From positions 64,001 to 128,000 of the IMG/VR virus record IMGVR_UViG_3300030099_006944: a stretch of 64,000 bases of DNA, one strand, 5' to 3'. The number at the start of each line of letters is the position of its first letter. Within the stretch, counting starts at the first letter, position 1. The notes under the pieces are model-generated. The model was not told the DNA's origin. It searched no databases and saw only the letters and a list, made by a program, of their open reading frames with translations. This DNA is from a virus. Position numbers and translations under genes: made by a program. This document shows, one piece after another, positions 20,889 to 38,688 of this stretch.

Positions 20889-21299
20889 GTGAAACTAACA
20901 GAAGCAAAATTAAAAGAATTAATCTTAGAAGTAATGGGAGAGCCATTGCCCGAAATGATAACCGATTTACTGGATACCAATGATCCCGAAAATGTAGTGT
21001 ATGCCATTGAGTTATTTCAAGCGTTGGGCGATCCGGATAATAAAGATGAGATTGAGGCTACAATAATCAGTCCGACTTCAATAAGCATAAGTGGGAACTC
21101 TCTCGGGGCAGTTGGCAAACTCTTTAAAAGACTAGGATTAAAAGCAGGCCATGGTGGCCTTGCCGGAGATGATGGGAGACCATTTATAACAGCAGATCTT
21201 TATCCCAACGAACCAGAGCCCGAAGAAGAAGGAGGCGAAGATGCGCCTTATTATGACAGTTCTAGTGAATGGAAATCAAATGTTCGTCCAAAACGGTAA
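20889..21299 (+). CDS. Hypothetical acidic protein with conserved N-terminal leader
   Basis: GTG start. Begins MKLTEAKLKELILEVMGE and is preceded by ACTAATTA. Confidence 0.6.
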   Translation: MKLTEAKLKELILEVMGEPLPEMITDLLDTNDPENVVYAIELFQALGDPDNKDEIEATIISPTSISISGNSLGAVGKLFKRLGLKAGHGGLAGDDGRPFITADLYPNEPEPEEEGGEDAPYYDSSSEWKSNVRPKR

Positions 21300-21305
21300 A
21301 TAATT

Positions 21306-22598
21306 ATGAAACTAATAGAAGCAAAATTGAGAGAATTGATATGTGAGGTGCTTAATGAATCTAGATTCAATAAGAAAGCTTCCTCGGGAGTATTAGGTAT
21401 GAAACGAGGTGATGATGTTTCTAAGTCTTATTATAAAAAATTAGAAAAAGAAAAAAATGAAAAAATTGTGAGATATAGGCGCAAACTTGAGTTGACGTGC
21501 TCAGGTGGAAAGAAGACTGCTTGTGAAGAATTAAAAAACGTCGATGCCTACTTGGCTAGCCTAGAAGATAAAGGTGCGATGCCTGTTCCGACTCCTAAAT
21601 CAATTCGCAATATTGAAGCATCGACTTTTTCGGCCAAAAGAATTCGCGCTTATATGGAAAAAGTAATGGAAAACCATCCAGACCCAGAATGGCGCGAAGG
21701 ATTTAAATTTTCTTTTCGATTGCGCTTTTCCGCTCAACTTAGTGAACCCCCAAGTGATGGTCAATTGCCTTTCTCTGGTGTCAGACAACCGCCTCATTGG
21801 CTATTCGATCCCGGACTAGTTCGGCCTAAGAAATTTAGACACCTTGAAGAATCGGACTTTAGGCCCGAACTTGATGCAGAAGGTGAGCGTGAAGAAAGAG
21901 AAAGACTAGCGATGGACCAACGAGGCAGGAGAATGAGAGCGTACGCTCGCATCCCAATGTCTGATAAATGGGATGATTGGGAAAACAGGCACAGTTTCTA
22001 CATTGCTAAAGATAAAGAGCGCGGTGAGTTTGGGAAGCATTCTACTTTAGATTACTATTTGTGGTCCCGTATCCCAATGGAAGAATTAACCTTGCATCAC
22101 TTTGGAGACTACTGGGAACTGGATCCCGGCGACACACAAGGCCATGAAGAATATTATGTTGTAAAAAGATTGATTAGTCCAACTGGTGATGAACGTGCTT
22201 ACCAAGATGCAATGGGTGACGCGGGTCTAACAGAGTCAGTTTTAAAACAGTTAATCTATGAAACTCTGGAAGATGAAAGGGGAATCGATGGGCTGATAAA
22301 ATCAGGAGAGTGGGAAAATATTAACACAGCACTATCCCTCACGGTTGATGTCGGTTTGCCATTAGAAGAGTTGCCTTGGGATCTTCTGCCAATGAGTATT
22401 ATGGCAGAAGATGACTTGGTAGAGTTAGCGCGCTATTTATTAGATCTAAAAGGTTGGGAGGAACCAGGTCATAGTGATCCGGTCGGTAGGATGTTGCGCC
22501 ACGGCATCAAGGGAATGGTCGGAAAATTTCCTAGGATAGGCCGACAATATGCAGTCATGGCAATTAAAAAAATATTGGGACTTAGCCTCAGACCTTAA
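21306..22598 (+). CDS. Hypothetical protein with N-terminal leader and a second, internal leader copy
   Basis: Begins MKLIEAKLRELICEVLNE. Internal LTESVLKQLIYETLE at 22227-22271. Confidence 0.6.
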   Translation: MKLIEAKLRELICEVLNESRFNKKASSGVLGMKRGDDVSKSYYKKLEKEKNEKIVRYRRKLELTCSGGKKTACEELKNVDAYLASLEDKGAMPVPTPKSIRNIEASTFSAKRIRAYMEKVMENHPDPEWREGFKFSFRLRFSAQLSEPPSDGQLPFSGVRQPPHWLFDPGLVRPKKFRHLEESDFRPELDAEGEREERERLAMDQRGRRMRAYARIPMSDKWDDWENRHSFYIAKDKERGEFGKHSTLDYYLWSRIPMEELTLHHFGDYWELDPGDTQGHEEYYVVKRLISPTGDERAYQDAMGDAGLTESVLKQLIYETLEDERGIDGLIKSGEWENINTALSLTVDVGLPLEELPWDLLPMSIMAEDDLVELARYLLDLKGWEEPGHSDPVGRMLRHGIKGMVGKFPRIGRQYAVMAIKKILGLSLRP

Positions 22599-22621
22599 TA
22601 TATTAAATTTTAAAAAAATAC

Positions 22622-22649
22622 TTGACAAATCCTCTCAACGTGTTACATT
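22622..22649 (+). promoter_or_regulatory. sigma70-type promoter for primase (TTGACA-N16-TACATT, extended -10 TGn, AT-rich UP-like region)
   Basis: TTGACA at 22622-22627, TG at 22641-22642, TACATT at 22644-22649, with an A/T tract immediately upstream. Confidence 0.55.
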
Positions 22650-22666
22650 ATAAAAGAGAGGACAAC

Positions 22667-23602
22667 ATGAATAACAAACGACAGATAATAACCGACATAC
22701 TCGGTTCCTATCGCCGTGCAGGCGATGAACACTTATATCACTGCCCATTTTGCAAACACCACAAGAAAAAGATGTCGGTCAACTTTTCGATCAACTCTTA
22801 CAAATGTTGGGTTTGTGATGCTAGGGGTAAAAACATTTACCGACTTGTAAGAAAGTTTGGCAACTACCAGCAAAGACAAAAGTATCTGGAATTACAAGGC
22901 AGACTCGATCTTACAGAGTTTGAAGATATATTCAAAGAAATCAACGAACAGGAAACAATTCAAAAAATTGATTTACCTTTGGAGTTTATATCACTATGTA
23001 ATAAACACTTGCCACTACATTCTCAGACGCCTTTGGAATACCTCAAAACGAGGGGGATAGGTAAAGCTGAGATTTTACGCTGGAAGATGGGTTACTGCAA
23101 GGAGGGACGTTACAGTGGAAGAATTATTATCCCGTCTATCAACAACGATGGGGATTGTAATTATTTTATTGCCCGTTCTTATGTTGGGCATGGTCGTCGG
23201 TACCTTAATCCTCCGTGCGGTAGAGACATTGTCTTTAACTCTCTTATGGTTGACTGGGATGAGCCTGTTGTACTGGTCGAAGGTGTTTTTGATGCTATTG
23301 TTGTTGGAGACAATGCTATACCTATTCTTGGGTCAACGCTCCGAGAGGATTCCCGCCTTTTTCAGGCGTTAGCAATTCATGATACTCCGGTTTATGTAGC
23401 GTTAGATCCGGATGCTGAAAAAAAAGCACAGTGGATTATCAAGTCTCTTATGAGATACGACTTGGAAGTTAAAAAAATAAATTTAGAGGAATATGAAGAT
23501 ATTGGCTCAATGTCTAAGCAGGTTTTTCTAGAAAAATTACAAAATGCAGAGGAAGTAGACAGTGATATGTACTTCCTAGAAAGAATATTAAAAAGTATAT
23601 AA
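22667..23602 (+). CDS. dnaG: DNA primase (CHC2 zinc finger plus TOPRIM)
   Basis: HCPFC...CWVC zinc finger, LVEGVFDA and ALDPDA TOPRIM motifs. Start set to ATG 22667 after GAGAGGA; the ORF-track TTG start is the -35 box. Confidence 0.85.
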   Translation: MNNKRQIITDILGSYRRAGDEHLYHCPFCKHHKKKMSVNFSINSYKCWVCDARGKNIYRLVRKFGNYQQRQKYLELQGRLDLTEFEDIFKEINEQETIQKIDLPLEFISLCNKHLPLHSQTPLEYLKTRGIGKAEILRWKMGYCKEGRYSGRIIIPSINNDGDCNYFIARSYVGHGRRYLNPPCGRDIVFNSLMVDWDEPVVLVEGVFDAIVVGDNAIPILGSTLREDSRLFQALAIHDTPVYVALDPDAEKKAQWIIKSLMRYDLEVKKINLEEYEDIGSMSKQVFLEKLQNAEEVDSDMYFLERILKSI

Positions 23603-23613
23603 TTGGAGGACTA

Positions 23614-23916
23614 ATGTTATTTTATATTTTCATGGCATGCCATCAGCCATTAGAAACAACAGGGCAAACCGTAGAAATACCCAAAGAAGCATACGAATGG
23701 ACTTGTCGCGACAGACAAGAACATAGCGAGATAGAAATAACAGCAGGGGTATGCAATGAATTTGAAACCTTAGAAGTATCAGTTTCGTTGATCAACGAGG
23801 GTGACTTTCAAGAAGAAATGTATCATGAAGGTGGCTGTTGGTGGTCGGCTTTTATAATACAGGAAGAAAACTGCATAGAAATAGAGAATATTATTATAAC
23901 AGCGAAGGCGTTATGA
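23614..23916 (+). CDS. Putative small lipoprotein
   Basis: GGAGG RBS. Hydrophobic start MLFYIFMA-C with a lipobox-like Cys9. Confidence 0.4.
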   Translation: MLFYIFMACHQPLETTGQTVEIPKEAYEWTCRDRQEHSEIEITAGVCNEFETLEVSVSLINEGDFQEEMYHEGGCWWSAFIIQEENCIEIENIIITAKAL

Positions 23917-24125
23917 AAACTTTAGATTTACATGGAATGACGCATTCAGAGGCCGAAGCGGCATGTCATTTCTTTATCAATAACAATTGGGGTGAAGAAA
24001 TGAGAATCATCACAGGCAATTCTTTTTTGATGAAAGAGATTGTATGCCAAGTGCTAATATTTTATAAATTAGATTTTACACTTGACAACCCATACAACAT
24101 GGGTTATATTATAGTAAGAAAGTAA
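23913..24125 (+). CDS. Stand-alone Smr-domain protein
   Basis: ATGA overlap start. MKTLDLHGMT...MRIITGNS matches the Smr DLHG and IITG signatures. Confidence 0.65.
   Translation: MKTLDLHGMTHSEAEAACHFFINNNWGEEMRIITGNSFLMKEIVCQVLIFYKLDFTLDNPYNMGYIIVRK
24082..24110 (+). promoter_or_regulatory. sigma70-type promoter TTGACA-N17-TATATT for the SbcDC fusion gene
   Basis: TTGACA at 24082-24087 and TATATT at 24105-24110, followed by GGAGG and ATG 24136. Confidence 0.7.
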
Positions 24126-24135
24126 TGGAGGACAT

Positions 24136-27100
24136 ATGACTACTTTTGCACACATATCGGACACTCATATCCGAAACGTTAAATATCACGAAGAATACAG
24201 AAAGGTATTTAAAGATATATATGAGAGCTTAGAAAACGACAAACCAGATTATATTATACACACCGGTGACATTGCTCACACAAAGACACAATTGTCTCCG
24301 GAATATTTTGAACTTTGCGCAGATTTTCTCAAAAATTTAGCAGATATTGCGCCAACTTATATTATTTTAGGAAACCACGATGGTAACCTCAAAAACGACA
24401 ATCGACAGGATGCAATTACCCCAGTAATTGAAGCACTACAACATCCAAACTTGTTTTTGTTAAAGAATTCAGGCGAGACCCAATTGACAGACTCGATCTG
24501 CCTAAATGTCCTCTCTGTGTTTGATCGGGACAATTGGGTAACTCCCACTGATAAATCCATGGTAAACATTGCGCTTTACCATGGTGCTATCATGGGGTGT
24601 GAAATAAATGAAGAATGGAATCTCGAAAATGGCGAAGATGATATTAATATATTTACAAACTTCGATTACGCTATGTTGGGCGATATCCACAAAACACAAA
24701 AGTTAGACCCGGACGGTCGAGTTTGGTATGCCGGCTCTACTGTTCAGCAAAACTTTGGCGAGTCTTTGATGAAGGGTTATCTTTTGTGGGATATCCGAGA
24801 TCAAGAAACATTTAGTGTTGAAAAAAGATTATTTATGTCTCCTCGACCATTTTATACTGTTGAGATAAATCAAGACGGAACTTTACCAAAAGTTAACGTA
24901 CCAAAGAACGCTAGACTCAGATTGGTGTCAAACTACAATCTACCGTTGGTAAAATTAAGAATGGCATGTGATTATGCAAATGCAAAATGGAATCCGTATA
25001 CAATAAATTTTGTTAACAGGGCAGGGTACACTGAATCCTCTGTTGTGCAAAACGATGGTAAGAACATTAATATGCGAGACCAAAATGTTCAAGAGAAATA
25101 TATCAAAGCATTTCTTTCCGATAAAGAAATTACCAAGGATGTCTTAGATAGAGTTTTAGAACTTAATCGGGAATATTCTAAGCAAATCAAAGGATCAGAA
25201 GATGTTTCTAGAAATATTGTTTGGAAACTTCGTAAAATGAAATGGAACAATCTATTTAACTACGGCGAAAAGAATGAAATTGATTTTGATAAGCTAAATG
25301 GGCTTGTTGGGATCTTCGGCAAAAACTATTCTGGAAAGTCCAGTATCATTGATGCGGCACTTTTTGGCTTATTTAACACTACGTCCAAAGGAGAGAGAAA
25401 AAATGTTCACATCGTTAATCAAAATCGCGACAAAGCTAAGTGTCAACTTGAGATCGGAGTCGGTGATGATACCTACAAGATTACAAGAAACCTCGAAACC
25501 TACCAAAAGAAACTAAGAGGCAAGGAAACAAAAGAAGTAAAAACTGAATTGGATTTTACTAAATGGGCACTTGGACAACACGCTGAGAGTAAAAACGGCA
25601 CCACTCGTAACGAAACAGACGAGATTATTCGTAAAACATTTGGAAACTACAATGACTTTATGATAACTTCAATGGCCTCTCAGATGGATGCGTTTGGTTT
25701 TATTAACGAGGGATCCACAAAACGCAAAGAGATTCTTGCAAAGTTTCTAGATTTGAAAATGTTCGAAGAGAAACATAAATTAGCGAAGAAAGACTCAGCA
25801 GAAAAGAAAGGCGTAATAAAACACCTCAACTCAACCGATTGGAGAAAGAAGTTAAAATGGAATCAAGAAGCGTTATCTGAGATTTTAGAAGATATAGCAG
25901 ATCAGGCAGATTTGTGTGATAAGCACACTAAAAGAATCAATGTTCTTCGAGAAGAACAAAGGGTAATAAAAGATCAGATTACAACTGTCGGTACCGATTC
26001 GATTGATATAAAACAATTAGAAAAAGACCTCAAAAAGAAGCAAAAACAGCTTGCAACAGCCTCACAAGTAATCGAGAAGGGTCTTGATAGGTTAAGTGCC
26101 CAAGAGAGTCTACAAAAGCAATTACGGTCGTTTATTGAAGACTTTGATATCACAACTTGTGAAGACCAGATCGAAAAACATAAGGGTCTTTTGAAAGATA
26201 TTTCAATTATAGAAAGGAACATTCGTTCAACTAAGATGGAAATAGACAACTATCAGAACAAAATCGATTTACTACATGATCACGAATATGATCCAAATTG
26301 TAAGTACTGTCGCGATAACCAATTTGTCAAAGAAGCGGAACAAGCAAGAACCCTAATCGAAGAGTCACGGAAGACTTTGTGCGCCTTCGAGAGTGATTTG
26401 ACAGAGGCCAACAAGAAGAAACAAGCTATCAATATCACTTATTTAAAAGCTGAATTGGAAGATTACAATTTAAAGTTTAGAGAGGTAAAAACAAATGAAG
26501 TTAAGATCAAAAGTATTAAGTCGGAAGTGTCGGCAAGCAAGAGTAAAAAGGCTCTTACGGAAAAAGAGATCGAAGAGATCAAAACAAAGATCTCACACTA
26601 CTATGAAAACCAAGAGGCGTACGATAATTTGGAATCCTTGCAGAGAGATCTTAAAGCAATCAAATTAACCATATCCATGAAGATGAATGATCTCGAAAGA
26701 TGCAACAAGAAGGTTCTCAAACTAATGTCGGAAGAAGGCACCACTCGTCGCCTGATTGAAGAAGCCAAAGAGCACATTCAACAAATAGTAGATGCTGAGA
26801 ATGAGTTTATTGCTTATGATTTGTACATACAAGCAATGCATGCTAACGGAGTCTCATATCAGGTTATTAAGTCAATGTTGCCAATTATAAATAAAGAGAT
26901 TTCTTCTGTTCTAAATACAATTGTTGATTTCGAGGTTTTCTTTGACAATATCGATAATAAATTGGAAATTTACATTAAACATCCAAAATATGACCCTCGC
27001 CCATTATCAATGGGATCAGGAGCAGAGAAGACAATTGCTTCAATGGCAATACGTCTAGCCTTAATATCAATCACCAATTTACCAAAAAGCGAACTATTTA

Positions 27101-27285
27101 TACTTGACGAACCAGCAACTGCATTGGATCAAGATCACATGGAGGGGTTTATACGACTTCTGCAAATGATTAAAGGTCAATTTAGAACGGTTCTTCTTAT
27201 TTCCCATCTAGAATCTCTCAAAGACATTGTTGATATGACAATCGATATTCAAAAAATAGATGGCTTTGCAAAGGTAAAAGTATAA
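24136..27285 (+). CDS. Fused SbcD/Mre11 nuclease and SbcC/Rad50 ATPase (gp47-gp46-like recombination nuclease)
   Basis: Metallophosphoesterase motifs HISDTH, HTGD, GNHD, LGDIH. Walker A GKNYSGKSS, coiled coil with CKYC zinc hook, signature SGAE, Walker B FILDEP, H-loop ISH. Confidence 0.9.
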   Translation: MTTFAHISDTHIRNVKYHEEYRKVFKDIYESLENDKPDYIIHTGDIAHTKTQLSPEYFELCADFLKNLADIAPTYIILGNHDGNLKNDNRQDAITPVIEALQHPNLFLLKNSGETQLTDSICLNVLSVFDRDNWVTPTDKSMVNIALYHGAIMGCEINEEWNLENGEDDINIFTNFDYAMLGDIHKTQKLDPDGRVWYAGSTVQQNFGESLMKGYLLWDIRDQETFSVEKRLFMSPRPFYTVEINQDGTLPKVNVPKNARLRLVSNYNLPLVKLRMACDYANAKWNPYTINFVNRAGYTESSVVQNDGKNINMRDQNVQEKYIKAFLSDKEITKDVLDRVLELNREYSKQIKGSEDVSRNIVWKLRKMKWNNLFNYGEKNEIDFDKLNGLVGIFGKNYSGKSSIIDAALFGLFNTTSKGERKNVHIVNQNRDKAKCQLEIGVGDDTYKITRNLETYQKKLRGKETKEVKTELDFTKWALGQHAESKNGTTRNETDEIIRKTFGNYNDFMITSMASQMDAFGFINEGSTKRKEILAKFLDLKMFEEKHKLAKKDSAEKKGVIKHLNSTDWRKKLKWNQEALSEILEDIADQADLCDKHTKRINVLREEQRVIKDQITTVGTDSIDIKQLEKDLKKKQKQLATASQVIEKGLDRLSAQESLQKQLRSFIEDFDITTCEDQIEKHKGLLKDISIIERNIRSTKMEIDNYQNKIDLLHDHEYDPNCKYCRDNQFVKEAEQARTLIEESRKTLCAFESDLTEANKKKQAINITYLKAELEDYNLKFREVKTNEVKIKSIKSEVSASKSKKALTEKEIEEIKTKISHYYENQEAYDNLESLQRDLKAIKLTISMKMNDLERCNKKVLKLMSEEGTTRRLIEEAKEHIQQIVDAENEFIAYDLYIQAMHANGVSYQVIKSMLPIINKEISSVLNTIVDFEVFFDNIDNKLEIYIKHPKYDPRPLSMGSGAEKTIASMAIRLALISITNLPKSELFILDEPATALDQDHMEGFIRLLQMIKGQFRTVLLISHLESLKDIVDMTIDIQKIDGFAKVKV

Positions 27286-27551
27286 TGAAAATGACGAAAC
27301 AACAACTAAAACAAATTATAAAAGAAGAGCTCACTGGGGTTCTGAAAGAAATGGGTCCAGAGATTCCTGATGCGGAGCTACCGCAAGGGGACGATCTAGA
27401 TCAGGCACTTAATATTCCGGAAGAAGTACCACCAGAAGTTGCGGAAATGGGAGAGTGGTACGCTGCTAATCCCAATGCTTCTCCGGAGGAAGTTCATATG
27501 GCATGGTCAGAAATTTCTGCAAAATATATGCCGGGAGCCATGGAAGAATGA
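27285..27551 (+). CDS. Hypothetical acidic protein with conserved N-terminal leader
   Basis: Begins MKMTKQQLKQIIKEELTGVLKE. TAATG coupling. Confidence 0.6.
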   Translation: MKMTKQQLKQIIKEELTGVLKEMGPEIPDAELPQGDDLDQALNIPEEVPPEVAEMGEWYAANPNASPEEVHMAWSEISAKYMPGAMEE

Positions 27552-27787
27552 AAGAAGAAAACAAAGTTATGATTCAAAATGAACTATACCTTAAAAATGA
27601 AAATAAAGGTATCTTAGATGCTGTTCAAGAAAAACTCGCGAGTAGAAAATTACTAGTTTTTCTGACGGCAACTGCTCTTATGGTTTGGGCAAATCTAGAC
27701 CCAGATATTTGGGGTATGATTGCTATGTGTTATATTGGTGGCCAATCGGCTATCGATTTCGCAAAATCTTGGAAACACGGAGGATAA
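27548..27787 (+). CDS. Putative holin-like membrane protein (two TM segments)
   Basis: KLLVFLTATALMVWA and IWGMIAMCYIGG hydrophobic segments in a small protein. ATGA overlap start. Confidence 0.4.
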   Translation: MKEENKVMIQNELYLKNENKGILDAVQEKLASRKLLVFLTATALMVWANLDPDIWGMIAMCYIGGQSAIDFAKSWKHGG

Positions 27788-27792
27788 TGAAA

Positions 27793-27894
27793 ATGAAAGC
27801 GTTTTTACACAGACTAGCAAATTTGTTCAACAGTGCTCACTGTTGTTGCTGTTGTGGATGTTGTGCTTGTGTTAGTTGTAAAGGAACTTGTTAA
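27793..27894 (+). CDS. 33-aa cysteine-rich peptide (10 Cys)
   Basis: GGAGG at 27779-27783. MKAFLHRLANLFNSAHCCCCCGCCACVSCKGTC, with its stop overlapping the next ATG. Confidence 0.55.
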   Translation: MKAFLHRLANLFNSAHCCCCCGCCACVSCKGTC

Positions 27895-28247
27895 TGAAAC
27901 TTACCAAAAACCAACTAACACAAATTATAAAAGAAGAACTCAATACCGTCATGGAATCCTATGGTGATAATTATAAAGATTATATGCTTCGACCAGAAGA
28001 CCCAGAAGTCATGGCCGATATTGAACGTAGAAACAATATGGACCTAGAAGAAAAGGTCAAAGAATGGTACGGTAATGAAATAACTGATCTTTCCCAGATC
28101 ATTTGGATGGAAGGACTCGAAGAAAATCAGATGGAACAAGGTTTTGCCATATTAGGTGAAGACCCGAGATACGTATTGGAATCTATCGAACCAGAGGAGC
28201 TTCCAATAATTTGGAAATTGGCTCTAGAAGAAGCGGAAGATATGTAG
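27894..28247 (+). CDS. Hypothetical acidic protein with conserved N-terminal leader
   Basis: Begins MKLTKNQLTQIIKEELNTVMES. Start moved to the ATG overlapping the upstream TAA. Confidence 0.6.
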   Translation: MKLTKNQLTQIIKEELNTVMESYGDNYKDYMLRPEDPEVMADIERRNNMDLEEKVKEWYGNEITDLSQIIWMEGLEENQMEQGFAILGEDPRYVLESIEPEELPIIWKLALEEAEDM

Positions 28248-28249
28248 TT

Positions 28250-28297
28250 ATGAAACTCTCTAAACAACATCTTAAAAGCGCGTACGGAGCAGAATAG
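28250..28297 (+). pseudogene. 15-aa remnant of a leader-bearing gene (MKLSKQHLKSAYGAE)
   Basis: Fills the gap between two genes exactly. Its TAG overlaps the next GTG, and the first 9 residues match the leader family. Confidence 0.35.
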
Positions 28298-28695
28298 TGA
28301 AGATTGCTTGGGCTAAAATAAAACTATGGTGCTTTCATAATTGGAGAATTCTGGTTATTGTCGGCGCTATTGTTTTAGCCTATCTCTTGGGAGGTAAAAA
28401 AGTCAAAGCGCTTCAAACTCAATTACAGATGGCCAAGGAGCTTTATAAAAAAGAACTTGATGCTGTTGAGTCGGCCTCCGATAAAAAAACAGAATTGCAA
28501 ACCGAAGCCAACATTAAATATAAGCGCGCTTTAGAGATTGCACACAAAACAGCAATGGAGTCAGATGACCATATAGAACTAATCAAAGCAGAGAGAGTTC
28601 GAAGACTTGTTGAGGATAACAAAGACGATCCAGATAAGATCGATCGTATTTTAGCTGAGGAGTTTGGTATCCTTGTATTTCCGAAGGATAAATAA
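28297..28695 (+). CDS. Membrane-anchored coiled-coil protein (i-spanin-like)
   Basis: N-terminal TM segment ILVIVGAIVLAYLLGG followed by a charged helical region. Confidence 0.4.
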   Translation: MKIAWAKIKLWCFHNWRILVIVGAIVLAYLLGGKKVKALQTQLQMAKELYKKELDAVESASDKKTELQTEANIKYKRALEIAHKTAMESDDHIELIKAERVRRLVEDNKDDPDKIDRILAEEFGILVFPKDK

Positions 28696-29045
28696 TGAAA
28701 CTTTGGACACCATGGTTTTTTGAAAACAGCAAGATTCCCGTTTGGTTATCTTATGTGTCTCCAATTAATATTGGCGCGATTACTCTTGGGCCGATCGTGA
28801 TTAGTAAAGGAGAAATGTCAGACAAAACCAAGAGACATGAGACGATACATTATCAACAATATATTGACGTGTTGTTTGTTGGGTTTTGGCCTCTTTATTT
28901 GTTTTACTGGATGGTTAATCTTCTCAGAGGTATGAATGGCAGTACAGCGTATAGAAAAATACCATTTGAAGTAGAAGCCTACAATAATGATCATGATGAG
29001 TCCTACTTGCAGAACAGAAAAAGATATGCTTGGTGGGGGCTCTAA
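28695..29045 (+). CDS. Small membrane zincin-like protein (HExxH; DUF4157-like)
   Basis: RHETIHYQQ, then a hydrophobic segment, then PFEVEAY. Confidence 0.55.
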   Translation: MKLWTPWFFENSKIPVWLSYVSPINIGAITLGPIVISKGEMSDKTKRHETIHYQQYIDVLFVGFWPLYLFYWMVNLLRGMNGSTAYRKIPFEVEAYNNDHDESYLQNRKRYAWWGL

Positions 29046-30148: not shown

Positions 30149-30699
30149 GTTCAAATACGTTGGAAATTATTCAAGGGCTAGCACAAGCAGCCGCAAACGC
30201 TTATGATGGAGCGCACGACGAACGCTTTGCTTTGGACGGTCAAATTAGAAAAGTTGGCCTGAATCGTGAAGAAGGTTGTCCCATCATGGATCAGAGAGTA
30301 ACAGATGGTTTTTCAGTTAAGTTCTATGGGGATTCCATATGCATTAATTATCAAAGCGACACGCGCCTTAAAGATGTCCATGATCCCAAATACGAACAAG
30401 ATATTGAAAGAATGCTCAACGAAGTAAAAAAGTTTCTACAAAGAGAGTATAAAGCCGTAACCGGAAAAGGAATCACCCTTAAGAAGAAAGGTGAACCTCG
30501 CGTACTAGTACAAAGCACTTCTAGGGTTCGCACATTTGTACAGGCGTACCAGCACTACACCATCTCTGGCCTAGACAAGGTTACGAATTCTGATCCAATG
30601 GTCGACAAAAATAGAGAAATTACTCGAAAATTTCTAGAACAACATTCAACTAAGCGTCCCAAAAATGACACGCGCAAAAAAGGAAACAATGGAAAATGA
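30145..30699 (+). CDS. Hypothetical protein
   Basis: 184-aa ORF coupled on both sides. Confidence 0.55.
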   Translation: MSSNTLEIIQGLAQAAANAYDGAHDERFALDGQIRKVGLNREEGCPIMDQRVTDGFSVKFYGDSICINYQSDTRLKDVHDPKYEQDIERMLNEVKKFLQREYKAVTGKGITLKKKGEPRVLVQSTSRVRTFVQAYQHYTISGLDKVTNSDPMVDKNREITRKFLEQHSTKRPKNDTRKKGNNGK

Positions 30700-31391
30700 A
30701 GATAACAGAAGAACAACTCAAAGTAATAATTCTAGAAGAATTAGAAAAACTTCATAATGAAGGCTTTTTGGACGATATAGCCCGTAGTGCAAAAAAAGGT
30801 ATGTACAATTTAGGAAGACCACGCAGCGCACCTTCATATGATGAATTGTATACAGAGCTTATAGGCACCCAAGCTGGTTTGCAAGATTTAATGCACACCA
30901 AGCCACAAGAACTAACAAAGTGGACTATGGGGTTTTTCTCAAAACGAGGATGGCCAGAGGGTACAAAAATCAATGAAATGGTTATGCAAATTGATGATCT
31001 AGTTGACCAAACACGCCATGGATCAGATGAAGATGGCGTAGGTATGATGCAAGTCGACAATTTTGAAGAGTTACAACGTTATCTCAAATATTATAGAGAG
31101 AACATCAGAGAAGAAATAAAATCACTAAAAGGCAAATTCCAATCTAACCCAGAACAAGCAAACTCGCAATTGCCCATTCTCGCCCAGCAGTTGTCAGAAG
31201 TTTTATATATTATTTCCGGTCCTAGTCAAGATACTGGTGAGGGGCCAAGTCGATCAGATATTTCCAAAAAGCATTATGCTCCACATATAGAAAGAGCACT
31301 GCGTTCTGTGCAGGAGCACATTACTCAACGTGAAAAATCATACATGTCAGAGTCTAAGCGCTCACAAAGAAAACGCAAAACCAGAGGATAG
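30696..31391 (+). CDS. Hypothetical helical protein with conserved N-terminal leader
   Basis: Begins MKITEEQLKVIILEELEKLHNE and has a basic C-terminus. Confidence 0.6.
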   Translation: MKITEEQLKVIILEELEKLHNEGFLDDIARSAKKGMYNLGRPRSAPSYDELYTELIGTQAGLQDLMHTKPQELTKWTMGFFSKRGWPEGTKINEMVMQIDDLVDQTRHGSDEDGVGMMQVDNFEELQRYLKYYRENIREEIKSLKGKFQSNPEQANSQLPILAQQLSEVLYIISGPSQDTGEGPSRSDISKKHYAPHIERALRSVQEHITQREKSYMSESKRSQRKRKTRG

Positions 31392-32975
31392 ATGGGATTT
31401 AAACTCTCAAAACAAGAAATTGTTAAGGAGATTGTGAAGTGCGGGAAGGATCCACAATTCTTCATCGATAATTATTGTCGTATTTCACATCCACTCAAAG
31501 GACTCATTCCTTTCAAAACCTTCGACTATCAGAAAGATCTCCTCAAAGATTTCAATGATTATCGATTCAATATTATATTAAAAGCCAGACAACTTGGTAT
31601 CTCCACAATCTCAGCGGGATACATTGTCTGGTTTATGCTTTTTCACCGAGACAAAAACATTCTTGTTATCGCAACCAAATTTGGCACGGCAGCAAACTTG
31701 GTGAAGAAGGTAAAACAAATAATGAAGCACCTCCCCGAATGGATCAAAATAGCCAAGATCGTCACGGACAACAAAACTTCATTCGAATTATCAAACGGCT
31801 CACAGATTAAAGCCGGAACCACTTCTGGCGATGCGGGTCGTTCGGAGGCATTATCACTGCTCGTTATAGACGAGGCAGCACACGTAGAAGGCCTTGACGA
31901 GTTGTGGACGGGTCTTTACCCTACTTTGTCAACAGGAGGGCGCTGCATAGCTTTATCGACCCCTAATGGGGTAGGAAATTGGTTCCACAAGACATACGTT
32001 GATGCAGAAACATCTGATAATGATTTTCATCCAATAATTCTGCCATGGGATGTACATCCAGAACGTGATCAGCAATGGTTCACAAAAGAAACTAAAAATA
32101 TGTCCCGGAGGCAAATTGCACAAGAGTTGGAATGTAATTTCAATACATCGGGAGATACCGTCATACATCCGGATGATATGCAATGGTTATTTGAAAATTT
32201 AAAGGAACCTCTATACAAAACAGGATACGATCGTAATTTTTGGATTTGGGAAAAGTATATCGAAGGATGTTCATACGTATTGGTTGCTGATGTTGCGCGA
32301 GGAGACGGAACAGATTTTTCTGTATTTCACGTTTTGAGACTGGATACAATGGCAGTAGTTGCCGAATATCAAGGTAAACCCAATTTAGATCTGTATTCGA
32401 ACGTACTATATGATGCCGGCAAGGAATACGGATTTTGTCTTTTGGTCGTAGAAAATAATGGAATTGGTATCTCTGTTTTGGAAAAATTGATTTCTTTGGA
32501 ATATCCAAAACTATATTATTCTATCAAGTCGACTCACGAATATGTCGAGGCCCACCTAGCAGAAGGTAACGATCGATCGGTACCCGGGTTTACTACTTCT
32601 ACCAAAACAAGACCGCTAATCGTGGCGAAATTAGAGGAGTATGTTAGAAACAAACTAATTACATTGCATTCTAATCGTTTATTTCACGAAATGAAAACGT
32701 TCATTTGGTATAATGGTAAACCACAAGCTATGCGTTCCTACAATGACGATTTGGTCATGGCTCTTGCTATTACCTGTTGGGTCAGGGACACAGCACTGGA
32801 AGAGAACAAAAGAGAAATGGAGTACAAAAGGGCAATGTTGGACGGAATAAAAAAATCTACAACCACTATGAACACTCAGATAAAAGGACAGGACGGCTAC
32901 TCTAAAACGTTTAATGAAAAATACGAAGAAGAAATAAAGAAAACAAAAGAATTTCTCTGGATTTATAAAGGATAA
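31392..32975 (+). CDS. terL: Terminase large subunit (T4 gp17-like)
   Basis: ILKARQLGIST (Walker A region), LLVIDEAAH (Walker B), ALSTPNG, nuclease motifs VADVARGDG and NDDLVMALA. Confidence 0.95.
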   Translation: MGFKLSKQEIVKEIVKCGKDPQFFIDNYCRISHPLKGLIPFKTFDYQKDLLKDFNDYRFNIILKARQLGISTISAGYIVWFMLFHRDKNILVIATKFGTAANLVKKVKQIMKHLPEWIKIAKIVTDNKTSFELSNGSQIKAGTTSGDAGRSEALSLLVIDEAAHVEGLDELWTGLYPTLSTGGRCIALSTPNGVGNWFHKTYVDAETSDNDFHPIILPWDVHPERDQQWFTKETKNMSRRQIAQELECNFNTSGDTVIHPDDMQWLFENLKEPLYKTGYDRNFWIWEKYIEGCSYVLVADVARGDGTDFSVFHVLRLDTMAVVAEYQGKPNLDLYSNVLYDAGKEYGFCLLVVENNGIGISVLEKLISLEYPKLYYSIKSTHEYVEAHLAEGNDRSVPGFTTSTKTRPLIVAKLEEYVRNKLITLHSNRLFHEMKTFIWYNGKPQAMRSYNDDLVMALAITCWVRDTALEENKREMEYKRAMLDGIKKSTTTMNTQIKGQDGYSKTFNEKYEEEIKKTKEFLWIYKG

Positions 32976-32978
32976 AAT

Positions 32979-34913
32979 ATGGCTCGCAACGATAGAAACC
33001 CAAACAACAATCAGTCTCAATTATTTAAAGCTTTAACTAGGCTTTTTTCTGGTCCGATTGTACAACGAAGAACTCAATCCGGAAGGGAATTGAGAAGAAG
33101 ACATTTGGATATGTACGCTAAAAGATTCAGATCTGCTAGTGGTCAACAATTCAAAAAGACAGAATACAACCCGATGAACATCACAACTCTGAATATGATA
33201 TCCAACAGGAATCGTGCAGAGAGATATATTGATTTTGACCAAATGGAGTACACACCAGAGATCGCATCAGCTTTGGATATATATGCAGACGAAATGACAA
33301 CCCACTCAGGGATCACTCCTATATTAAACATCAAGTGCCCGAATGATGAAATCAAATACATTCTCCATTCATTATATTATAATATAATGAATATTGAGCA
33401 TAATCTTTTTGGCTGGGCTCGAACGATGTGTAAATACGGAGATTTATTTTTATATTTGGATATCGATGAAGGATTGGGAATACGGAATTGTATTGGATTA
33501 CCTTGTGGCGAGATTGAAAGATTAGAGGGCGAAGACCCTACAAATCCAAATTATATTCAATACCAATGGAACAATGGAGGTTTAACTCTTGAAAACTGGC
33601 AGATAGCGCATTTTAGAATACTGGGGCACGATAAACATGCACCATACGGCACTAGTGCACTAGAACCCGCTAGAAGAATTTGGAGACAACTTACCCTTCT
33701 AGAAGATGCCATGATGGCTTATCGTATTGTTAGAGCATCAGAACGTCGAGTTTTTAAAATTGATGTTGGTGGCATCGCACCACAAGATGTTGAACAATAT
33801 ATGCAGAAAGTAATGACGCAAATGAAACGTCATCAAGTTACCGACCCTGCTTCCGGTCGCGTTGATTTACGGTACAATCCTCTTTCAATTGAAGAAGATT
33901 ATTTCATTCCAATACGAGGAGGGCAGTCCTCAACAGATATTAGTAACCTTGCTGGTGGGACTTTCACGGCTCAAATCGAGGACGTAAAGTATCTCCGCGA
34001 CAAACTTTTCTCGGCTCTAAAAGTACCCCAATCTTATTTAGCAATGGGTGAAGGTGCGGCTGAGGATAAGACAACTTTGGCCCAAAAGGATATTCGCTTC
34101 GCCAGAACAATTCAGAGACTACAAAGAGTTGTAGTAGCAGAACTTGAAAAAGTAGGAATCATCCACTTGTATACAATGGGATATCGCGATGATGATCTTT
34201 TAAGTTTCAAATTGTCTCTCAATAACCCGAGCAAGATTGCAGAAATGCAAGAATTAGAACATTGGAGCACAAAGTTTGATATTGCCGGTGCAGCTACTGA
34301 GGGATACTTCTCTCGACGATGGGTTGCTGAAAACCTCCTAGGACTTTCCGAAGATGAATTTATCCGGATGCAAAGAGAAATGTTCCACGATAAGAAATTC
34401 ATGGCGGCGCTCGAAGCAGCAGCCGAACCGGCTGGTGAAGGTGGCGGAGGTGACTTAGGTGGCGGAGGTGACTTAGGTGGTGACCTTGGTGGCGATGAAG
34501 GTGGTGATCTAGACTTAGGCGGTGACGAAGGAGGTGACCTAGACCTAGGAGGCGATGAAGGTGGTGGAGAAGATGCAGGAGGTGATGATGAAGATATCCT
34601 CTTGGCGGAACCACCAGCAAAGAGAGATGACGATGCTAAACCAAACCAGCGAGGTCCATACAAAAGACACAAAAGATCTTATAAAAAAGGTGGACTGAAA
34701 AAACAAATGATAAACACTGGAAATGGTGAAGTAGGCACAGCTAGAAAAACTTGGCCCGGTAAAGTTGGTTTTGGAGGATTAGACTCGCTCGTACGAGGGG
34801 TAACAGAGGGCGTGGATAATGATGCTTTAGAAGAAGACAAACTATTTAATACTGACTTTGAAGTAAAAGCATTAATCGAATCACTAAAAAAGGTAAATAA
34901 AAATGAAACATAA
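32979..34913 (+). CDS. gp20: Portal protein (T4 gp20-like) with acidic Gly/Asp C-terminal extension
   Basis: LEDAMMAYRIVRASERRVFKIDVG, EEDYFIPIRGG and IEDVKYLRDKLFSALKVP. Follows terL. Confidence 0.9.
   Translation: MARNDRNPNNNQSQLFKALTRLFSGPIVQRRTQSGRELRRRHLDMYAKRFRSASGQQFKKTEYNPMNITTLNMISNRNRAERYIDFDQMEYTPEIASALDIYADEMTTHSGITPILNIKCPNDEIKYILHSLYYNIMNIEHNLFGWARTMCKYGDLFLYLDIDEGLGIRNCIGLPCGEIERLEGEDPTNPNYIQYQWNNGGLTLENWQIAHFRILGHDKHAPYGTSALEPARRIWRQLTLLEDAMMAYRIVRASERRVFKIDVGGIAPQDVEQYMQKVMTQMKRHQVTDPASGRVDLRYNPLSIEEDYFIPIRGGQSSTDISNLAGGTFTAQIEDVKYLRDKLFSALKVPQSYLAMGEGAAEDKTTLAQKDIRFARTIQRLQRVVVAELEKVGIIHLYTMGYRDDDLLSFKLSLNNPSKIAEMQELEHWSTKFDIAGAATEGYFSRRWVAENLLGLSEDEFIRMQREMFHDKKFMAALEAAAEPAGEGGGGDLGGGGDLGGDLGGDEGGDLDLGGDEGGDLDLGGDEGGGEDAGGDDEDILLAEPPAKRDDDAKPNQRGPYKRHKRSYKKGGLKKQMINTGNGEVGTARKTWPGKVGFGGLDSLVRGVTEGVDNDALEEDKLFNTDFEVKALIESLKKVNKNET
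34440..34570 (+). repeat. Tandem coding repeats in the portal tail (18-nt GGGGDL x2; ~30-nt GGDEGGDLDL x2-3)
   Basis: ggtggcggaggtgactta is exact at 34440-34457 and 34458-34475, followed by degenerate 30-nt units. Confidence 0.8.
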
Positions 34914-35724
34914 TAAGAAAAGAAATACCGCTTTTCTTTACGAATGCCTTATAAAAGAATTAACCAAAGCAATCGTACGAGAAAACAAAGAAAAACAAAC
35001 AATTACAAAAAATATTCTTAAAGAATTTTTTCACAAAGGAAGTATACTTAAAAAAGAATTGGTTTTATATAATTCTTTACTGGAAAGTAAAGGACTAGAA
35101 CCTGAATTTTCTAAGCGACTTCTCGTAGAAACAAAAAAGGATTTTGAGTCCCTCGACAGAAAAAAAGTTTTCAATCAACAGACTCAGCTAATAAATAAAA
35201 TAAACAAACAATTGGGCTTCGGAGCATATTCAAATTTTGTTCCAAACTATAAAGACTTAGCCACACTCGGACTTTTCTTTCAAAATTCAAACCTAAATGC
35301 CAAAAAAAGAATTATGCTGGAAAACAATTTAATTAAATTCCTAGGTAGATCTGATAAAATATTAACCGAAATGAAACATTTGGACAATTTGGAGTACAAA
35401 ACTTTTGTAAAAAAGTTCAACAATGCATATGAGAGAACCCTACAGAAAGAACAAAAAGATCTGTTAACCAATTATATTGTCTCTTTTTCTGACAATGGCC
35501 TAGGTTTGAAAAGTTTTTTAAATGAAGAGATTGGACGTCTCAAAAACGCCGTACAGCAGCAAATTGTAGAAGGGTCAACTACCCCAAATAACGAAAATTT
35601 TAAAAAAGTTAAGGTAAAGCTGGACGGTTACACAAAAAGACCAATAAATCAACAAATGGTTGAGGAGATTTTCTACATTCAAGACTTAATAGCGGAGGTA
35701 ACTAAAAATGAGCGTAAAAATTAA
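34903..35724 (+). CDS. Hypothetical head-module protein
   Basis: 273-aa helical ORF overlapping the portal end. Confidence 0.55.
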   Translation: MKHNKKRNTAFLYECLIKELTKAIVRENKEKQTITKNILKEFFHKGSILKKELVLYNSLLESKGLEPEFSKRLLVETKKDFESLDRKKVFNQQTQLINKINKQLGFGAYSNFVPNYKDLATLGLFFQNSNLNAKKRIMLENNLIKFLGRSDKILTEMKHLDNLEYKTFVKKFNNAYERTLQKEQKDLLTNYIVSFSDNGLGLKSFLNEEIGRLKNAVQQQIVEGSTTPNNENFKKVKVKLDGYTKRPINQQMVEEIFYIQDLIAEVTKNERKN

Positions 35725-36286
35725 CATCACCCCCGAAGAAGAAGCAACTCCGCAAGAACAAGAAAACTCAATTAAGATCGAAATCATCGAGAAAGATGAG
35801 TTGGAATTCAATCTTAACCTGAGGAGTGCCTTAAATGGGGATCTTATGATTTTAGATCACAAGGACATTGATATCGTTGTACAACCAACCTCTAAAAAAG
35901 TAGTCACTTTTGCAAAAGAGATAACATCAGACGCAGTGTATGGTGCCGAATCTAGACTTCTAGAATATTTGAGAAGACAAGGTGTTATAAATTATGATTC
36001 AATTCAAGGTGGAAACGTATATGGATCTTTGGAAGGTCAGATTATGGACTCCAAATCTCATGATCCAATAAAAGTGGCTCTGCTTAAAATTTCTGAATGG
36101 ATGGAAACAGAGAAACCTTATATTTCTGGTACCACGGCATATGACGATATGCAGGATGATGCTTTGATCGATCCGGACAACGAATATTCGACAGAATTAG
36201 GTCAAGTACCACACGCTGCCGAAAAGGGCTCCATTGTTCAGAACAACCTTTTCGCTCCATACCTATATGGAAGATACACTTACTGA
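35708..36286 (+). CDS. Hypothetical acidic head-module protein
   Basis: 192-aa ORF with GGAGGT RBS. Confidence 0.55.
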   Translation: MSVKINITPEEEATPQEQENSIKIEIIEKDELEFNLNLRSALNGDLMILDHKDIDIVVQPTSKKVVTFAKEITSDAVYGAESRLLEYLRRQGVINYDSIQGGNVYGSLEGQIMDSKSHDPIKVALLKISEWMETEKPYISGTTAYDDMQDDALIDPDNEYSTELGQVPHAAEKGSIVQNNLFAPYLYGRYTY

Positions 36287-36996
36287 TGAAAAAACTACTA
36301 GAAAATTTTAAGAGCTTTTTGTCTGAGGACGAAAAAGAACCAATACCTTTACCGGACACTTCTAACATTGGACTTTTTCATGATCCGGATATAGACAATC
36401 ATGAGTTAATATTATATTATCTGACTCCGCGCGGACCCTTTCCATTTGCCGCATGCGGTATAGATCGCCTCAGCGAAAACAAGAAAGGTGAACAATGTAT
36501 ACCTGAGACATGGCATATGTCTTGGATATATGTTCATGAAACCTTTCAAGGTTCGGGTTGGAGTAAAATTTTATACGGACTGTCATTTAATTTGGTTAAT
36601 AAAGAAGGCGCAGGGCTAACATCCGATCATTGGTCTTCCACGTCAGACGATGCAAAAAGCCGCGCTTGGGATAAAATGATATCTCGTAATCAACTGGTTC
36701 CCAGAAAAACTCCGGGTACTCCTCCGACCGGAGGCCACTCTGAATTCGATTATGGTAAGGCCGGATTTAAGAAGACCCCTTTGGATCCCATGGATGACTG
36801 TCGCGAACCCGGAGGCGGAAAAGCAGCAACATCAACTAGTTGGATAATGAAAGGACACAGCTACTTTGATTCGATTTATGATGATCTAACTGAAAATCAT
36901 GATCTGCTTATGTCAGCAGTACCCAATCGTGAACAAGTGGAACGAAGACTATCAGACGTTGCCGCTGATGAATTTGAAGTTGCTTATAGGGGGTAA
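36286..36996 (+). CDS. GNAT-fold-like protein with a T4 capsid-targeting-like N-terminus
   Basis: MKKLLENFKSFLSE start. WIYVHETFQGSGWSKILY resembles the GNAT acetyl-CoA-binding motif A. Confidence 0.45.
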   Translation: MKKLLENFKSFLSEDEKEPIPLPDTSNIGLFHDPDIDNHELILYYLTPRGPFPFAACGIDRLSENKKGEQCIPETWHMSWIYVHETFQGSGWSKILYGLSFNLVNKEGAGLTSDHWSSTSDDAKSRAWDKMISRNQLVPRKTPGTPPTGGHSEFDYGKAGFKKTPLDPMDDCREPGGGKAATSTSWIMKGHSYFDSIYDDLTENHDLLMSAVPNREQVERRLSDVAADEFEVAYRG

Positions 36997-36998
36997 CA

Positions 36999-37328
36999 GT
37001 GGATATAATTAATTTCATCCTAGTTTCTTATGGGATGACCTTCATAGTTGTGTATGGCAAGATATTTGAGAACATAAGACCAACGAAGGATTATAGTAAA
37101 AAATGGAACACCCTTTTTCATTGTCCACTTTGTATGGGTTTTTGGTGTTCTTTATTTTTGTTCTGCATAAACGGTTATACAGAACTATTTACGTTTGAAT
37201 ATTCCCTAGGGAATGCTTTCTGCCTCTCTTGTTTGGGAGCCGGAACTAGTTATTTGCTCTCCATGGTCGTTAACGATTTTGGGTTAAGAGTATCATCAAG
37301 ATCAGGAGGTGATTATGTTGATGATTAA
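36999..37328 (+). CDS. DUF1360-like membrane protein
   Basis: Hydrophobic segments and an LFHCPLCMGFW motif. Confidence 0.5.
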   Translation: MDIINFILVSYGMTFIVVYGKIFENIRPTKDYSKKWNTLFHCPLCMGFWCSLFLFCINGYTELFTFEYSLGNAFCLSCLGAGTSYLLSMVVNDFGLRVSSRSGGDYVDD

Positions 37329-37374
37329 ACGATGGATGCTTCAACCAGTCCGCCGTTGCTGTAGCGGATCATGA
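37315..37374 (+). CDS. 19-aa mini-ORF (MLMIKRWMLQPVRRCCSGS)
   Basis: Near-perfect SD AGGAGGTGA at 37304-37312 directly upstream. Fills the gap before the protease gene. Confidence 0.4.
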   Translation: MLMIKRWMLQPVRRCCSGS

Positions 37375-37417
37375 AGCGCGCCGGTGACGCCGGCAACAAT
37401 TTTTATTTGAGGAAAAT

Positions 37418-38026
37418 ATGTCTAAAACTTTATTAAGAGAATTCTATGCTTTATGTGAGGGTGGTATTTGTCAAGATCTTTTAACCGAAAGAGAAAAAAG
37501 GGAAATGGAAAATGGCGTTCTTTATTTATCAGGTCGTTTGCAAACTGCTGACAAGCAAAACGGAAATGGTCGGGTCTATCCTCACGAAGTCCTCAAAAGA
37601 GAGGTCAACAACTATATGAATGTAGTCAAAGACAATCGTGCTTGTGGTGAACTTGATCATCCGGATGATTCTGTTGTTAATCTTAAAAACGTTTCCCACA
37701 TCATAACTGATATATGGTGGGAAGGAAAGGATGTTATGGGCAAAATCAAAGTGCTCGATACCCCTTCCGGAAGGATCTTGAAAGATCTAGTGAATGCTGG
37801 TGTTAAACTCGGAATATCATCCAGAGGGTTAGGGTCAGTTAGAGAGAGTGCCGGGCAGACTGTTGTTGAAAATGATTTTCAATTAATTTGTTTTGATATG
37901 GTTTCCGAACCTTCAACTCCAAATGCTTATGTCTATCCAAAAGGGCAACAAAATGTATCTTCTAGGCTCAGAGAAGTTAAAGAAAATAGCATTAATGATC
38001 TATTTAAAAAGATCCTAGGAGATTAA
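37418..38026 (+). CDS. gp21: Prohead maturation protease (T4 gp21-like)
   Basis: NGNGRVYP, GELDHP, NLKNVSHII and LGISSRGLGS signatures. Confidence 0.92.
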   Translation: MSKTLLREFYALCEGGICQDLLTEREKREMENGVLYLSGRLQTADKQNGNGRVYPHEVLKREVNNYMNVVKDNRACGELDHPDDSVVNLKNVSHIITDIWWEGKDVMGKIKVLDTPSGRILKDLVNAGVKLGISSRGLGSVRESAGQTVVENDFQLICFDMVSEPSTPNAYVYPKGQQNVSSRLREVKENSINDLFKKILGD

Positions 38027-38030
38027 ATAA

Positions 38031-38270
38031 ATGAAAATAAAAAAAGACCGATTGGTACAAATTATCAAAGAGGAGCTTGATGATTATCAAATGTCAATGG
38101 CACAAGATGATCCGCAAGAATTCATGGCAGGAATGAAATCACAAGAAAGAATCAAGCAGATTGATATTCTAATCGCGGAACTACAAAGAGAAAAAGAAAT
38201 GTTGTTGATGAACATTGATTCTGGTGAGGTCACCTTTGATCAATCAAATACGCGGAGCCCAAATGAATAA
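38031..38270 (+). CDS. Small acidic protein with conserved N-terminal leader
   Basis: Begins MKIKKDRLVQIIKEELDD. AGGAG RBS. Confidence 0.6.
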   Translation: MKIKKDRLVQIIKEELDDYQMSMAQDDPQEFMAGMKSQERIKQIDILIAELQREKEMLLMNIDSGEVTFDQSNTRSPNE

Positions 38271-38688
38271 GAATGAATTGAAAAAAATCCTTAAACCTTT
38301 AATTAAAGAGTGTATTAAAGAAGTGATTTTTGAAGACGGAACTCTTTCGACTATTATATCTGAGGTTATGAAAGGAACTTCTTCTCAAAATGTCGTTTAT
38401 GAAGCAAAACAACCTAGGTTAGAAACTAAGCAAGAAGCCGATCAGCGACTGCAACGGAAACAGAAACAACTTCAAGAACAAAAACGAAAGATGTTAGACG
38501 CCATAGGAAAAGATTCCTACAATGGCGTTAATATATTTGAAGGAACTACACCAATGGCTGCTAGCAAAGAATCAACAATGTCACCACATGGAGCAAAAGC
38601 GCTGGATGGTGTTGCCCCAAATGATCCCGGAGTTGATATATCTTCGTTCGCATCAAGCGGTATTTGGAAAAAATTGGCAGGAAATTAA
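38263..38688 (+). CDS. Putative prohead core protein
   Basis: ATG 38263 after GGAG. MNKNELKKILKPLIKECIKEVIFE is leader-like. Lies next to the protease gene. Confidence 0.45.
   Translation: MNKNELKKILKPLIKECIKEVIFEDGTLSTIISEVMKGTSSQNVVYEAKQPRLETKQEADQRLQRKQKQLQEQKRKMLDAIGKDSYNGVNIFEGTTPMAASKESTMSPHGAKALDGVAPNDPGVDISSFASSGIWKKLAGN

Follow-up and report, generated by a model that had tools for sequence, protein, structure and literature searches.

Why should a run of unrelated small phage proteins all begin with the same short peptide? The question is raised by a 64,000-nucleotide stretch of DNA (hereafter the window) that comprises bases 64,001-128,000 of one 187,355-bp virus record (IMG/VR IMGVR_UViG_3300030099_006944), the genome of an uncultured marine T4-type phage of 187 kb. 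Between positions 20889 and 38688 of this window, open reading frames (ORFs) with different downstream sequences share an N-terminal leader, and it had been proposed that eight of them do so and that the leader works like the capsid-targeting sequence (CTS) of the T4 internal proteins, docking arbitrary cargo onto the prohead core, being clipped by the phage's own gp21-type protease and letting the cargo be injected with the DNA. The shared leader is confirmed here, and its extent is larger than first described. From the sequence evidence set out below we conclude, with moderate confidence, that it is a T4-style capsid-targeting propeptide, clipped by the protease and carried by a swappable library of payloads.

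All eight ORF starts quoted in the original prediction are present as written, and seven of them carry the leader; the eighth, at 38263, belongs to a conserved backbone protein (c11) that has a leader-like start only (Table 1). A profile of nine copies scored its own copies at 25-33 bits (E 5e-9 to 2e-6 among the 3,056 frames of a six-frame translation), the next best of these frames reaching no more than 10.6 bits. With a profile of 129 leader sequences, 11 N-terminal copies were found in the 187-kb genome, 7 of them within 20889-38688, and 7 of the 11 lie beside or inside the packaging/head module. A loose pattern of the leader core matched the window eight times on the plus strand, each time 7-26 residues past a stop codon, and once on the minus strand. 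Past the leader the proteins are unrelated, as had been proposed, since the cargo parts of the window copies gave no mutual BLASTP match at E 1e-4, and the description of the ORFs as mostly acidic also holds (isoelectric point, pI, of 4.0-4.4 for the cargo in 5 of 7 copies). Individual copies differ in their setting: the start of the ORF at 27285 overlaps an upstream gene for a protein of 1049 amino acids (aa) via TAATG, and of 36 related loci only 7 have a gene in the slot of the ORF at 38031, with 8 families represented there. The 430-aa ORF holds a second, diverged leader copy without Met at approximately 22227-22280 and for that reason looks like two fused modules, and the 15-codon stub is probably the scar of a lost cargo gene.

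Table 1. Features of the window, in window coordinates; bit scores are those of the 129-sequence leader profile.
Feature	Coordinates	Strand	Score or basis	Remarks
Leader-tagged ORF, 136 aa	20889..21299	+	21 bits	GTG start; acidic cargo, pI 4.3
Leader-tagged ORF, 430 aa	21306..22598	+		N-terminal leader and internal diverged copy
Leader-tagged ORF, 88 aa	27285..27551	+	42.6 bits	Acidic
Leader-tagged ORF, 117 aa	27894..28247	+	47.9 bits	Acidic
Leader stub, 15 codons	28250..28297	+		Leader-like start, then stop
Leader-tagged ORF, 111 aa	29439..29774	+	40.6 bits	
Leader-tagged ORF, 231 aa	30696..31391	+	36.2 bits	Abuts terminase start
Terminase	start 31392			
Portal, gp20-type	start 32979			
c16, head-module protein	36286..36996	+		Second, different shared N-terminal tag holding (L/I)-x-E
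Prohead protease, Peptidase_S77	37418..38026	+	Pfam E 1.9e-34; phrog_207 3e-61	T4 gp21 family
Leader-tagged ORF, 79 aa	38031..38270	+	37 bits	Between protease and c11
c11, conserved backbone protein, 141 aa	38263..38688	+		After protease; leader-like N-terminus
Scaffold, gp22-type	47049..48335	+		Very acidic; T4 gp22-like N-terminus
Major capsid protein, gp23 type	48359..50221	+	Alignment with T4 gp23	

The behavior of the leader in other phages was followed in a set of 80 related loci around the terminase (854 kb). All 163 leader matches in these loci lie on the coding strand and 160 of them begin at profile position 1-2, and the 173 tagged proteins, compared without the leader, sort into 115 families; a strict N-terminal position and a highly variable downstream cargo are what had been predicted for a profile search of related genomes. 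When 1.84 billion cluster representatives were searched exhaustively with the profile, 9,134 matched at E ≤0.001. All 19 single-copy proteins among the best 150 of these 9,134 matches aligned from residue 1, and the ten matches that were looked up are all metagenomic. A word-indexed homologue search with the first 40 residues returned 4 proteins only, which reflects a limitation of the index itself; one cargo protein used as a tblastn query gave no match, and a text search of the published literature did not find the leader string.

Cellular and viral DNA was scanned with a 28-nt degenerate pattern covering ten leader residues. The 596 Gb of bacterial and archaeal genomes contained 2 matches, one of them internal, chance-like and in an ordinary bacterial protein, versus at least 120 among the viral contigs of IMG/VR. 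One of the two matches in a cellular bin is locus L083 (NZGX01000088.1), a 16.7-kb contig in a metagenome-assembled genome of Rhodospirillaceae, which may be a mis-binned phage or a hint at the host. Most of the matching IMG/VR contigs have backbone genes in common with the genome studied here, an S77 protease is encoded on each of three long contigs that had no backbone match close to the tag, and this protease was present in every sufficiently complete tagged contig tested; complete relatives carry 7-11 tagged genes each. The leader is restricted to one clade of S77-encoding phages and is essentially absent from cellular genomes, in agreement with the predicted phage restriction.

The consensus of the leader is MK(I/L)TKEQLKQIIKEEL, followed by a looser V-(L/M)-x-E. 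Across 159 distinct tagged proteins its information content is high for residues 1-16, moderate up to residue 22 and at background from residue 23, which sets the length at about 22 residues and not at the approximately 18 first given. In an alignment of 129 rows there is no variation at I12 and E14 and hardly any at M1 and L8, and Asp never takes the place of E14; the (I/L/V/M)-x-E that each leader was said to hold is there, in a form, I12-x-E14, that is the (L/I)-x-E motif of T4 gp21. More broadly, a hydrophobic residue-x-Glu occurs at residues 12-16 in 98% of leaders, and a second one, with its Glu at 18-24, in 78%, compared to 6-11% in equal-sized downstream windows. Glu also directly follows E14 (E15, 87-88% of leaders), with L16 in 72%.

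The leader forms an amphipathic helix of approximately five turns. A predicted model of the 111-aa protein places a helix at residues 5-18, a disordered linker at 19-37 and a compact small alpha/beta domain at 40-105, and homologues of this protein retain the leader and are without 15 of the linker residues. The modeled helix, linker and domain, together with this indel, suggest that the leader is a separate module on a tether. A Foldseek comparison of the 111-aa model with the PDB gave no match at E ≤0.001, the 430-aa protein had no usable match in the ESM Atlas and a model of its own at a predicted local distance difference test (pLDDT) score of 0.48, and the AlphaFold model of the 231-aa protein was too poor for use (pLDDT 41).

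The protease that would have to remove such a leader is encoded immediately upstream of one of the tagged ORFs, and its assignment to the gp21 type was upheld by both Pfam and PHROGs (Table 1). In the major capsid protein the sequence L-L-R-E59|A60 aligns on the T4 gp23 cleavage site F-L-T-E65|A66 and is, by this alignment, the predicted cleavage site; since it falls on that position, the specificity of the protease is probably conserved. Several (L/I/M)-x-E sites are present within the first 45 residues of the scaffold, so that motifs of the protease are found, as claimed, in the N-termini of both capsid and scaffold. In T4, gp21 cuts after Glu in L/I-x-E; in internal protein IPIII, targeting depends on positions 4 and 7 of the 10-residue CTS and processing on positions 8 and 10, and a CTS with Asp at position 10 is not processed (PMC9026906). 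Leader residues L8, I11, I12 and E14 repeat the CTS pattern, with I12 and E14 corresponding to CTS residues 8 and 10; with IPI and IPIII this is a shared pattern only, the peptides being too short for statistics. In the T4 record IPIII and IPI begin with MK, have their leaders end in I-A-E|A and I-T-E|A, respectively, and have only the leader in common, and gp22 and gp24 start with short peptides containing the same L/I-x-E motif.

If the protease acts on these proteins, sites within the cargo would be expected to be selected against. Using one representative per family, expectations from composition and 95% intervals, (L/I)-x-E in cargo bodies showed an observed/expected ratio (O/E) of 0.82 (0.72-0.94) versus 1.11 (1.02-1.21) in other proteins of the same phages. 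Of the control motifs, (L/I)-x-Q was raised in cargo (1.34) and (L/I)-x-x-E was the same in cargo and other proteins; compared to small acidic control proteins, (L/I)-x-E stood at 0.80 in cargo and 0.99 in the controls. The depletion fits what selection against internal cuts would produce, and the effect is modest.

The tagged genes are also set apart by where they occur. Backbone gene order is kept between phages, while tagged genes are interspersed in it at places and in numbers that differ from phage to phage, and within the 80 loci singletons make up 58% of the tagged genes versus 4-5% of other genes. When accessory genes were counted as insertions between backbone genes of the packaging/head module, with two paralogous families excluded, the leader was found on 121 of 143 inserted accessory genes versus 1 of 722 backbone genes. 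Among these accessory genes, all of those located just upstream of the terminase are tagged (33 of 33), and they belong to 21 families.

At the DNA level the leader is 68% identical between genes of unrelated cargo versus 28-33% in the flanks, and exact runs of 30-65 nt are common to 31 of 9,966 unrelated-cargo pairs, some within one locus. Because leader DNA is so alike between such genes, it can serve as a recombination handle. The best global matches are chains with two to four leaders, and approximately 60% of the internal leader copies keep their Met, preceded by residues that read like a translated ribosome-binding site; judged by these sequences, the chains look like fused tandem genes. 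The similar leader DNA, the stub and the fused genes, along with cargo that is almost wholly without known domains and some excess of A-ending codons at K2, K5 and E14, could also be explained if the leader were chiefly an evolutionary start cassette, that is, a translation start and recombination handle with little function as a peptide. Yet the window copies use differing codons and have unrelated upstream DNA, which places conservation at the peptide level, and synonymous codons are mixed at every conserved position in relatives (L8 is encoded by six Leu codons, and I11 and I12 by all three for Ile), which argues that selection acts on the leader peptide; the periodic placing of hydrophobic residues, and the absence of variation at I12 and E14, point the same way. 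We regard a start cassette as very unlikely to be the chief explanation, and as likely to be partly true as a side effect of capsid targeting.

In the capsid-targeting reading, the amphipathic leader helix, on its flexible linker, would bring the downstream protein into the scaffolding core while the prohead assembles. Removal of the leader by the S77 protease would follow, at I12-x-E14, at the second hydrophobic-x-Glu site (18-24) or at both, and the freed cargo would remain in the head and enter the host along with the DNA; core docking, cutting, head retention and injection are steps that we infer. As the address is short and self-contained and the leader DNA is similar between genes, cargo genes could be gained, lost, fused and swapped freely, resulting in a hypervariable payload library. 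Every sequence-level prediction of this reading that was tested (position, variable cargo, confinement to phages, S77 protease, I-x-E, capsid site and motif depletion) agreed with it, and the inclusion of 38263 as cargo is a part of the original prediction that did not stand.

Several observations count against capsid targeting and have to be weighed with the above. Four of the 11 genome copies lie 50-75 kb away from the head module. The T4 cuts compared here have Ala or Ser after the Glu, unlike the Glu that follows E14 in the leader, and for this reason the invariant I12-x-E14 may not be the cut site. Cargo is mostly acidic (median pI 5.0), unlike the T4 internal proteins, which are basic. 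The depletion of (L/I)-x-E in cargo amounts to only approximately 20%, with an interval that just touches that of the matched acidic control, and in the global set, where its O/E is 0.88, (L/I)-x-x-E is also low, so that the effect there is less specific. The resemblance of the c11 N-terminus to the leader is weak (hhalign probability 11%, P 0.003). Finally, the T4-type late promoter TATAAATA has 8 plus-strand copies, which do not stand before genes and show no enrichment.

Part of this evidence would suit a different function, in which the leader stays on the protein and is a helix for docking or oligomerization with something that is not the prohead, such as a phage hub protein, a host machine or other tagged proteins. 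The amphipathic five-turn helix, the conservation that extends past I-x-E to E15 and L16, the four distant copies and the acidic cargo are all compatible with such a helix, which nevertheless does not predict a Glu that is invariant and never Asp, a second hydrophobic-x-Glu located exactly at the boundary of conservation, the depletion of (L/I)-x-E in cargo or the concentration of tagged genes in the packaging/head module; we consider this explanation unlikely. A further idea, that a modifying enzyme such as a radical-SAM/SPASM maturase recognizes the tag, seems to us extremely improbable. A search of the complete genome for Radical_SAM (PF04055) gave no match, the same domain was matched in 14 of 14 control genomes, and enzymes of other kinds were not observed to accompany the tag.

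With 38263 set aside as cargo, c11 can be placed differently. Because it is conserved, has a leader-like start and ends in a C-terminal motif common only to c11 and the scaffold, it is better seen as a core-type protein, and its sequence makes a small core or scaffold protein probable. The motif in which both proteins end is short and basic, K-K-L-A-G. In Flavobacterium phage immuto, a cultured relative, a near-identical K-K-L-A-G-type motif stands at the N-terminus of two otherwise different proteins (25470 and 111631), an arrangement that would result if a shell-binding peptide had been shifted to the start of the protein. The head module of the present phage also contains the second shared N-terminal tag listed for c16. 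Its core is K-L-I-M-E-S-W-R (again I-x-E), and it is found on the c16 family and several unrelated families, at genome positions 8407 and 25464, and in loci L005, L018, L049 and others.

Phage immuto (vB_FspM_immuto, MW353177) carries a shorter variant of the leader on four proteins, one of them in the head module. The four are encoded by genes 190 and 198 and by the ORFs that begin at 102250 and 102836. It has two further shared N-terminal tags, one of which resembles the scaffold C-terminal motif; the third immuto tag, with the core F-D-L-K-K-F-L-V-E-N, is on four or five different proteins (1803, 103762, 117587, 118588 and gene 201), and gene 201 follows the immuto protease. A virion proteome for immuto was not found in the literature. 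As a cultured relative with a variant tag, immuto makes the capsid-targeting idea testable, and virion proteomics is feasible.

The cargo proteins themselves are small, with a median of approximately 97 residues after the leader, and poor in Cys (0.3% versus 1.4% in other small proteins), and very few have hydrophobic stretches. Pfam and PHROGs searches of the tagged proteins of the window gave no match, and Pfam searches of 143 global and 100 long tagged proteins gave almost none. A single tagged protein (locus L122, 6258-7055, minus strand) has a YkuD L,D-transpeptidase domain and is without a signal peptide; this case is anecdotal, and the protein would reach the cell wall if it were ejected from the virion.

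The genome in which the leader was found is rated 100% complete by CheckV, with a GC content of 40% and nearly all genes on one strand. By terminase its nearest cultured relatives are immuto (48% identity) and Microcystis phage Mel-JY01 (44%), T4-like cyanophages being further away, and megablast of the region against cultured phages gave no match. Marine relatives are numerous in IMG/VR; their terminases show 74-99% identity, and several of the genomes are complete, with lengths of 184-192 kb. Sigma-70-like sites occur at chance level, and the one convincing plus-strand intrinsic terminator in 20-39.5 kb (37380-37394) lies in the 90-bp gap before the protease gene. Among the neighboring genes, a small ORF directly upstream of the tagged gene at 27894 (27793-27894) ends in a run of approximately 10 Cys, the C-terminal part of the portal (approximately 34400-34620) is a repetitive acidic tail of about 70 residues rich in Gly, Asp, Glu and Leu, and a ribosomal protein S21 gene (38689-38901; phrog_21469, 1.7e-11) that is conserved in relatives and in Mel-JY01 lies within the head module. 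A Ser/Thr/Gly-rich protein of 1100 aa with about four long internal repeats is encoded at 39415-42717, and its size ranges from 207 to 1100 aa in relatives.

The idea underlying our interpretation is the known principle of the T4 internal proteins, and not a new kind of system. In T4 and other T-even phages the CTS of IPI, IPII, IPIII and Alt, which gp21 removes, is likewise a short N-terminal peptide that is the sole feature common to unrelated, non-essential and hypervariable proteins; it holds L/I-x-E, and it operates with an S77 protease and a gp23-type capsid cleaved at the same position. Both peptides start with MK, and the h-x-x-h-h-x-E (h, hydrophobic) of T4 residues 4-10 matches leader residues 8-14. 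The leader differs in having 22 residues versus 10-19 and two tandem sites with a Glu after the first, and the system differs in its size, with 11 genes tagged per genome and 9,134 families across the world compared to 3-10 in T-evens, in genes dispersed between backbone genes and not gathered in ip loci, in mostly acidic cargo and in fused multi-leader chains. What is new is the longer two-site leader, the scale (11 per genome, 9,134 families), the almost exclusive hold of the leader on accessory genes in the head module, the chains of fused genes and the motif depletion. Encapsulin cargo-loading peptides are also short and portable and send arbitrary cargo inside an HK97-fold shell; unlike the leader, they are usually C-terminal, bind the shell directly and stay uncleaved, and neither DNA nor injection is involved.

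Other phage systems share single features. The Ip proteins of T-even phages are diverse injected anti-restriction proteins that were found via their common capsid-targeting leader (PMC12373910, PMC3012670), and the CTS has been suggested as the means by which a variety of proteins can enter the capsids of T4-like phages (PMC9026906). In phiKZ, 201phi2-1 and SPN3US, many head-internal proteins of the inner body or ejection type are cut after Glu at a short motif by gp21-related proteases, with redundant sites within the propeptide (PMC9026906), whereas those propeptides are long and family-specific, have S/A-x-E as their motif and offer no single portable tag. The promoter and stem-loop (PeSL) cassettes of T4-type phages are, like the leader, conserved short units at gene starts that mark hyperplastic regions and can mediate shuffling, and differ from it in being non-coding DNA, while the leader is coding and selected as a peptide (PMC2839356).

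Most small genes of marine phages are without known function, and it is for these that the finding would matter. If the tag marks proteins that are packed into the head and delivered with the DNA, thousands of dark-matter proteins would be labeled as effectors of the first minute of infection, i.e., candidates for anti-restriction, anti-defense and host takeover, and the tag would provide a one-line rule for spotting such effectors in metagenomes. The principle of the T4 internal proteins, so far known from a few proteins of coliphages, would then hold on a much larger scale and for a clade that is abundant and uncultured, and the portable 22-residue tag could, like the T4 CTS, become a tool for loading foreign proteins into phage heads. 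More tentatively, and at rather less than even confidence, we suggest that more than 9,000 families form an open library fed by recombination and defined by this 22-residue address, and that its members are loaded into the capsids of an abundant clade of marine phages and injected; if true, this set of virion-delivered effectors would exceed all known ones by far, and the leader DNA would double as the handle by which library members are swapped and fused.

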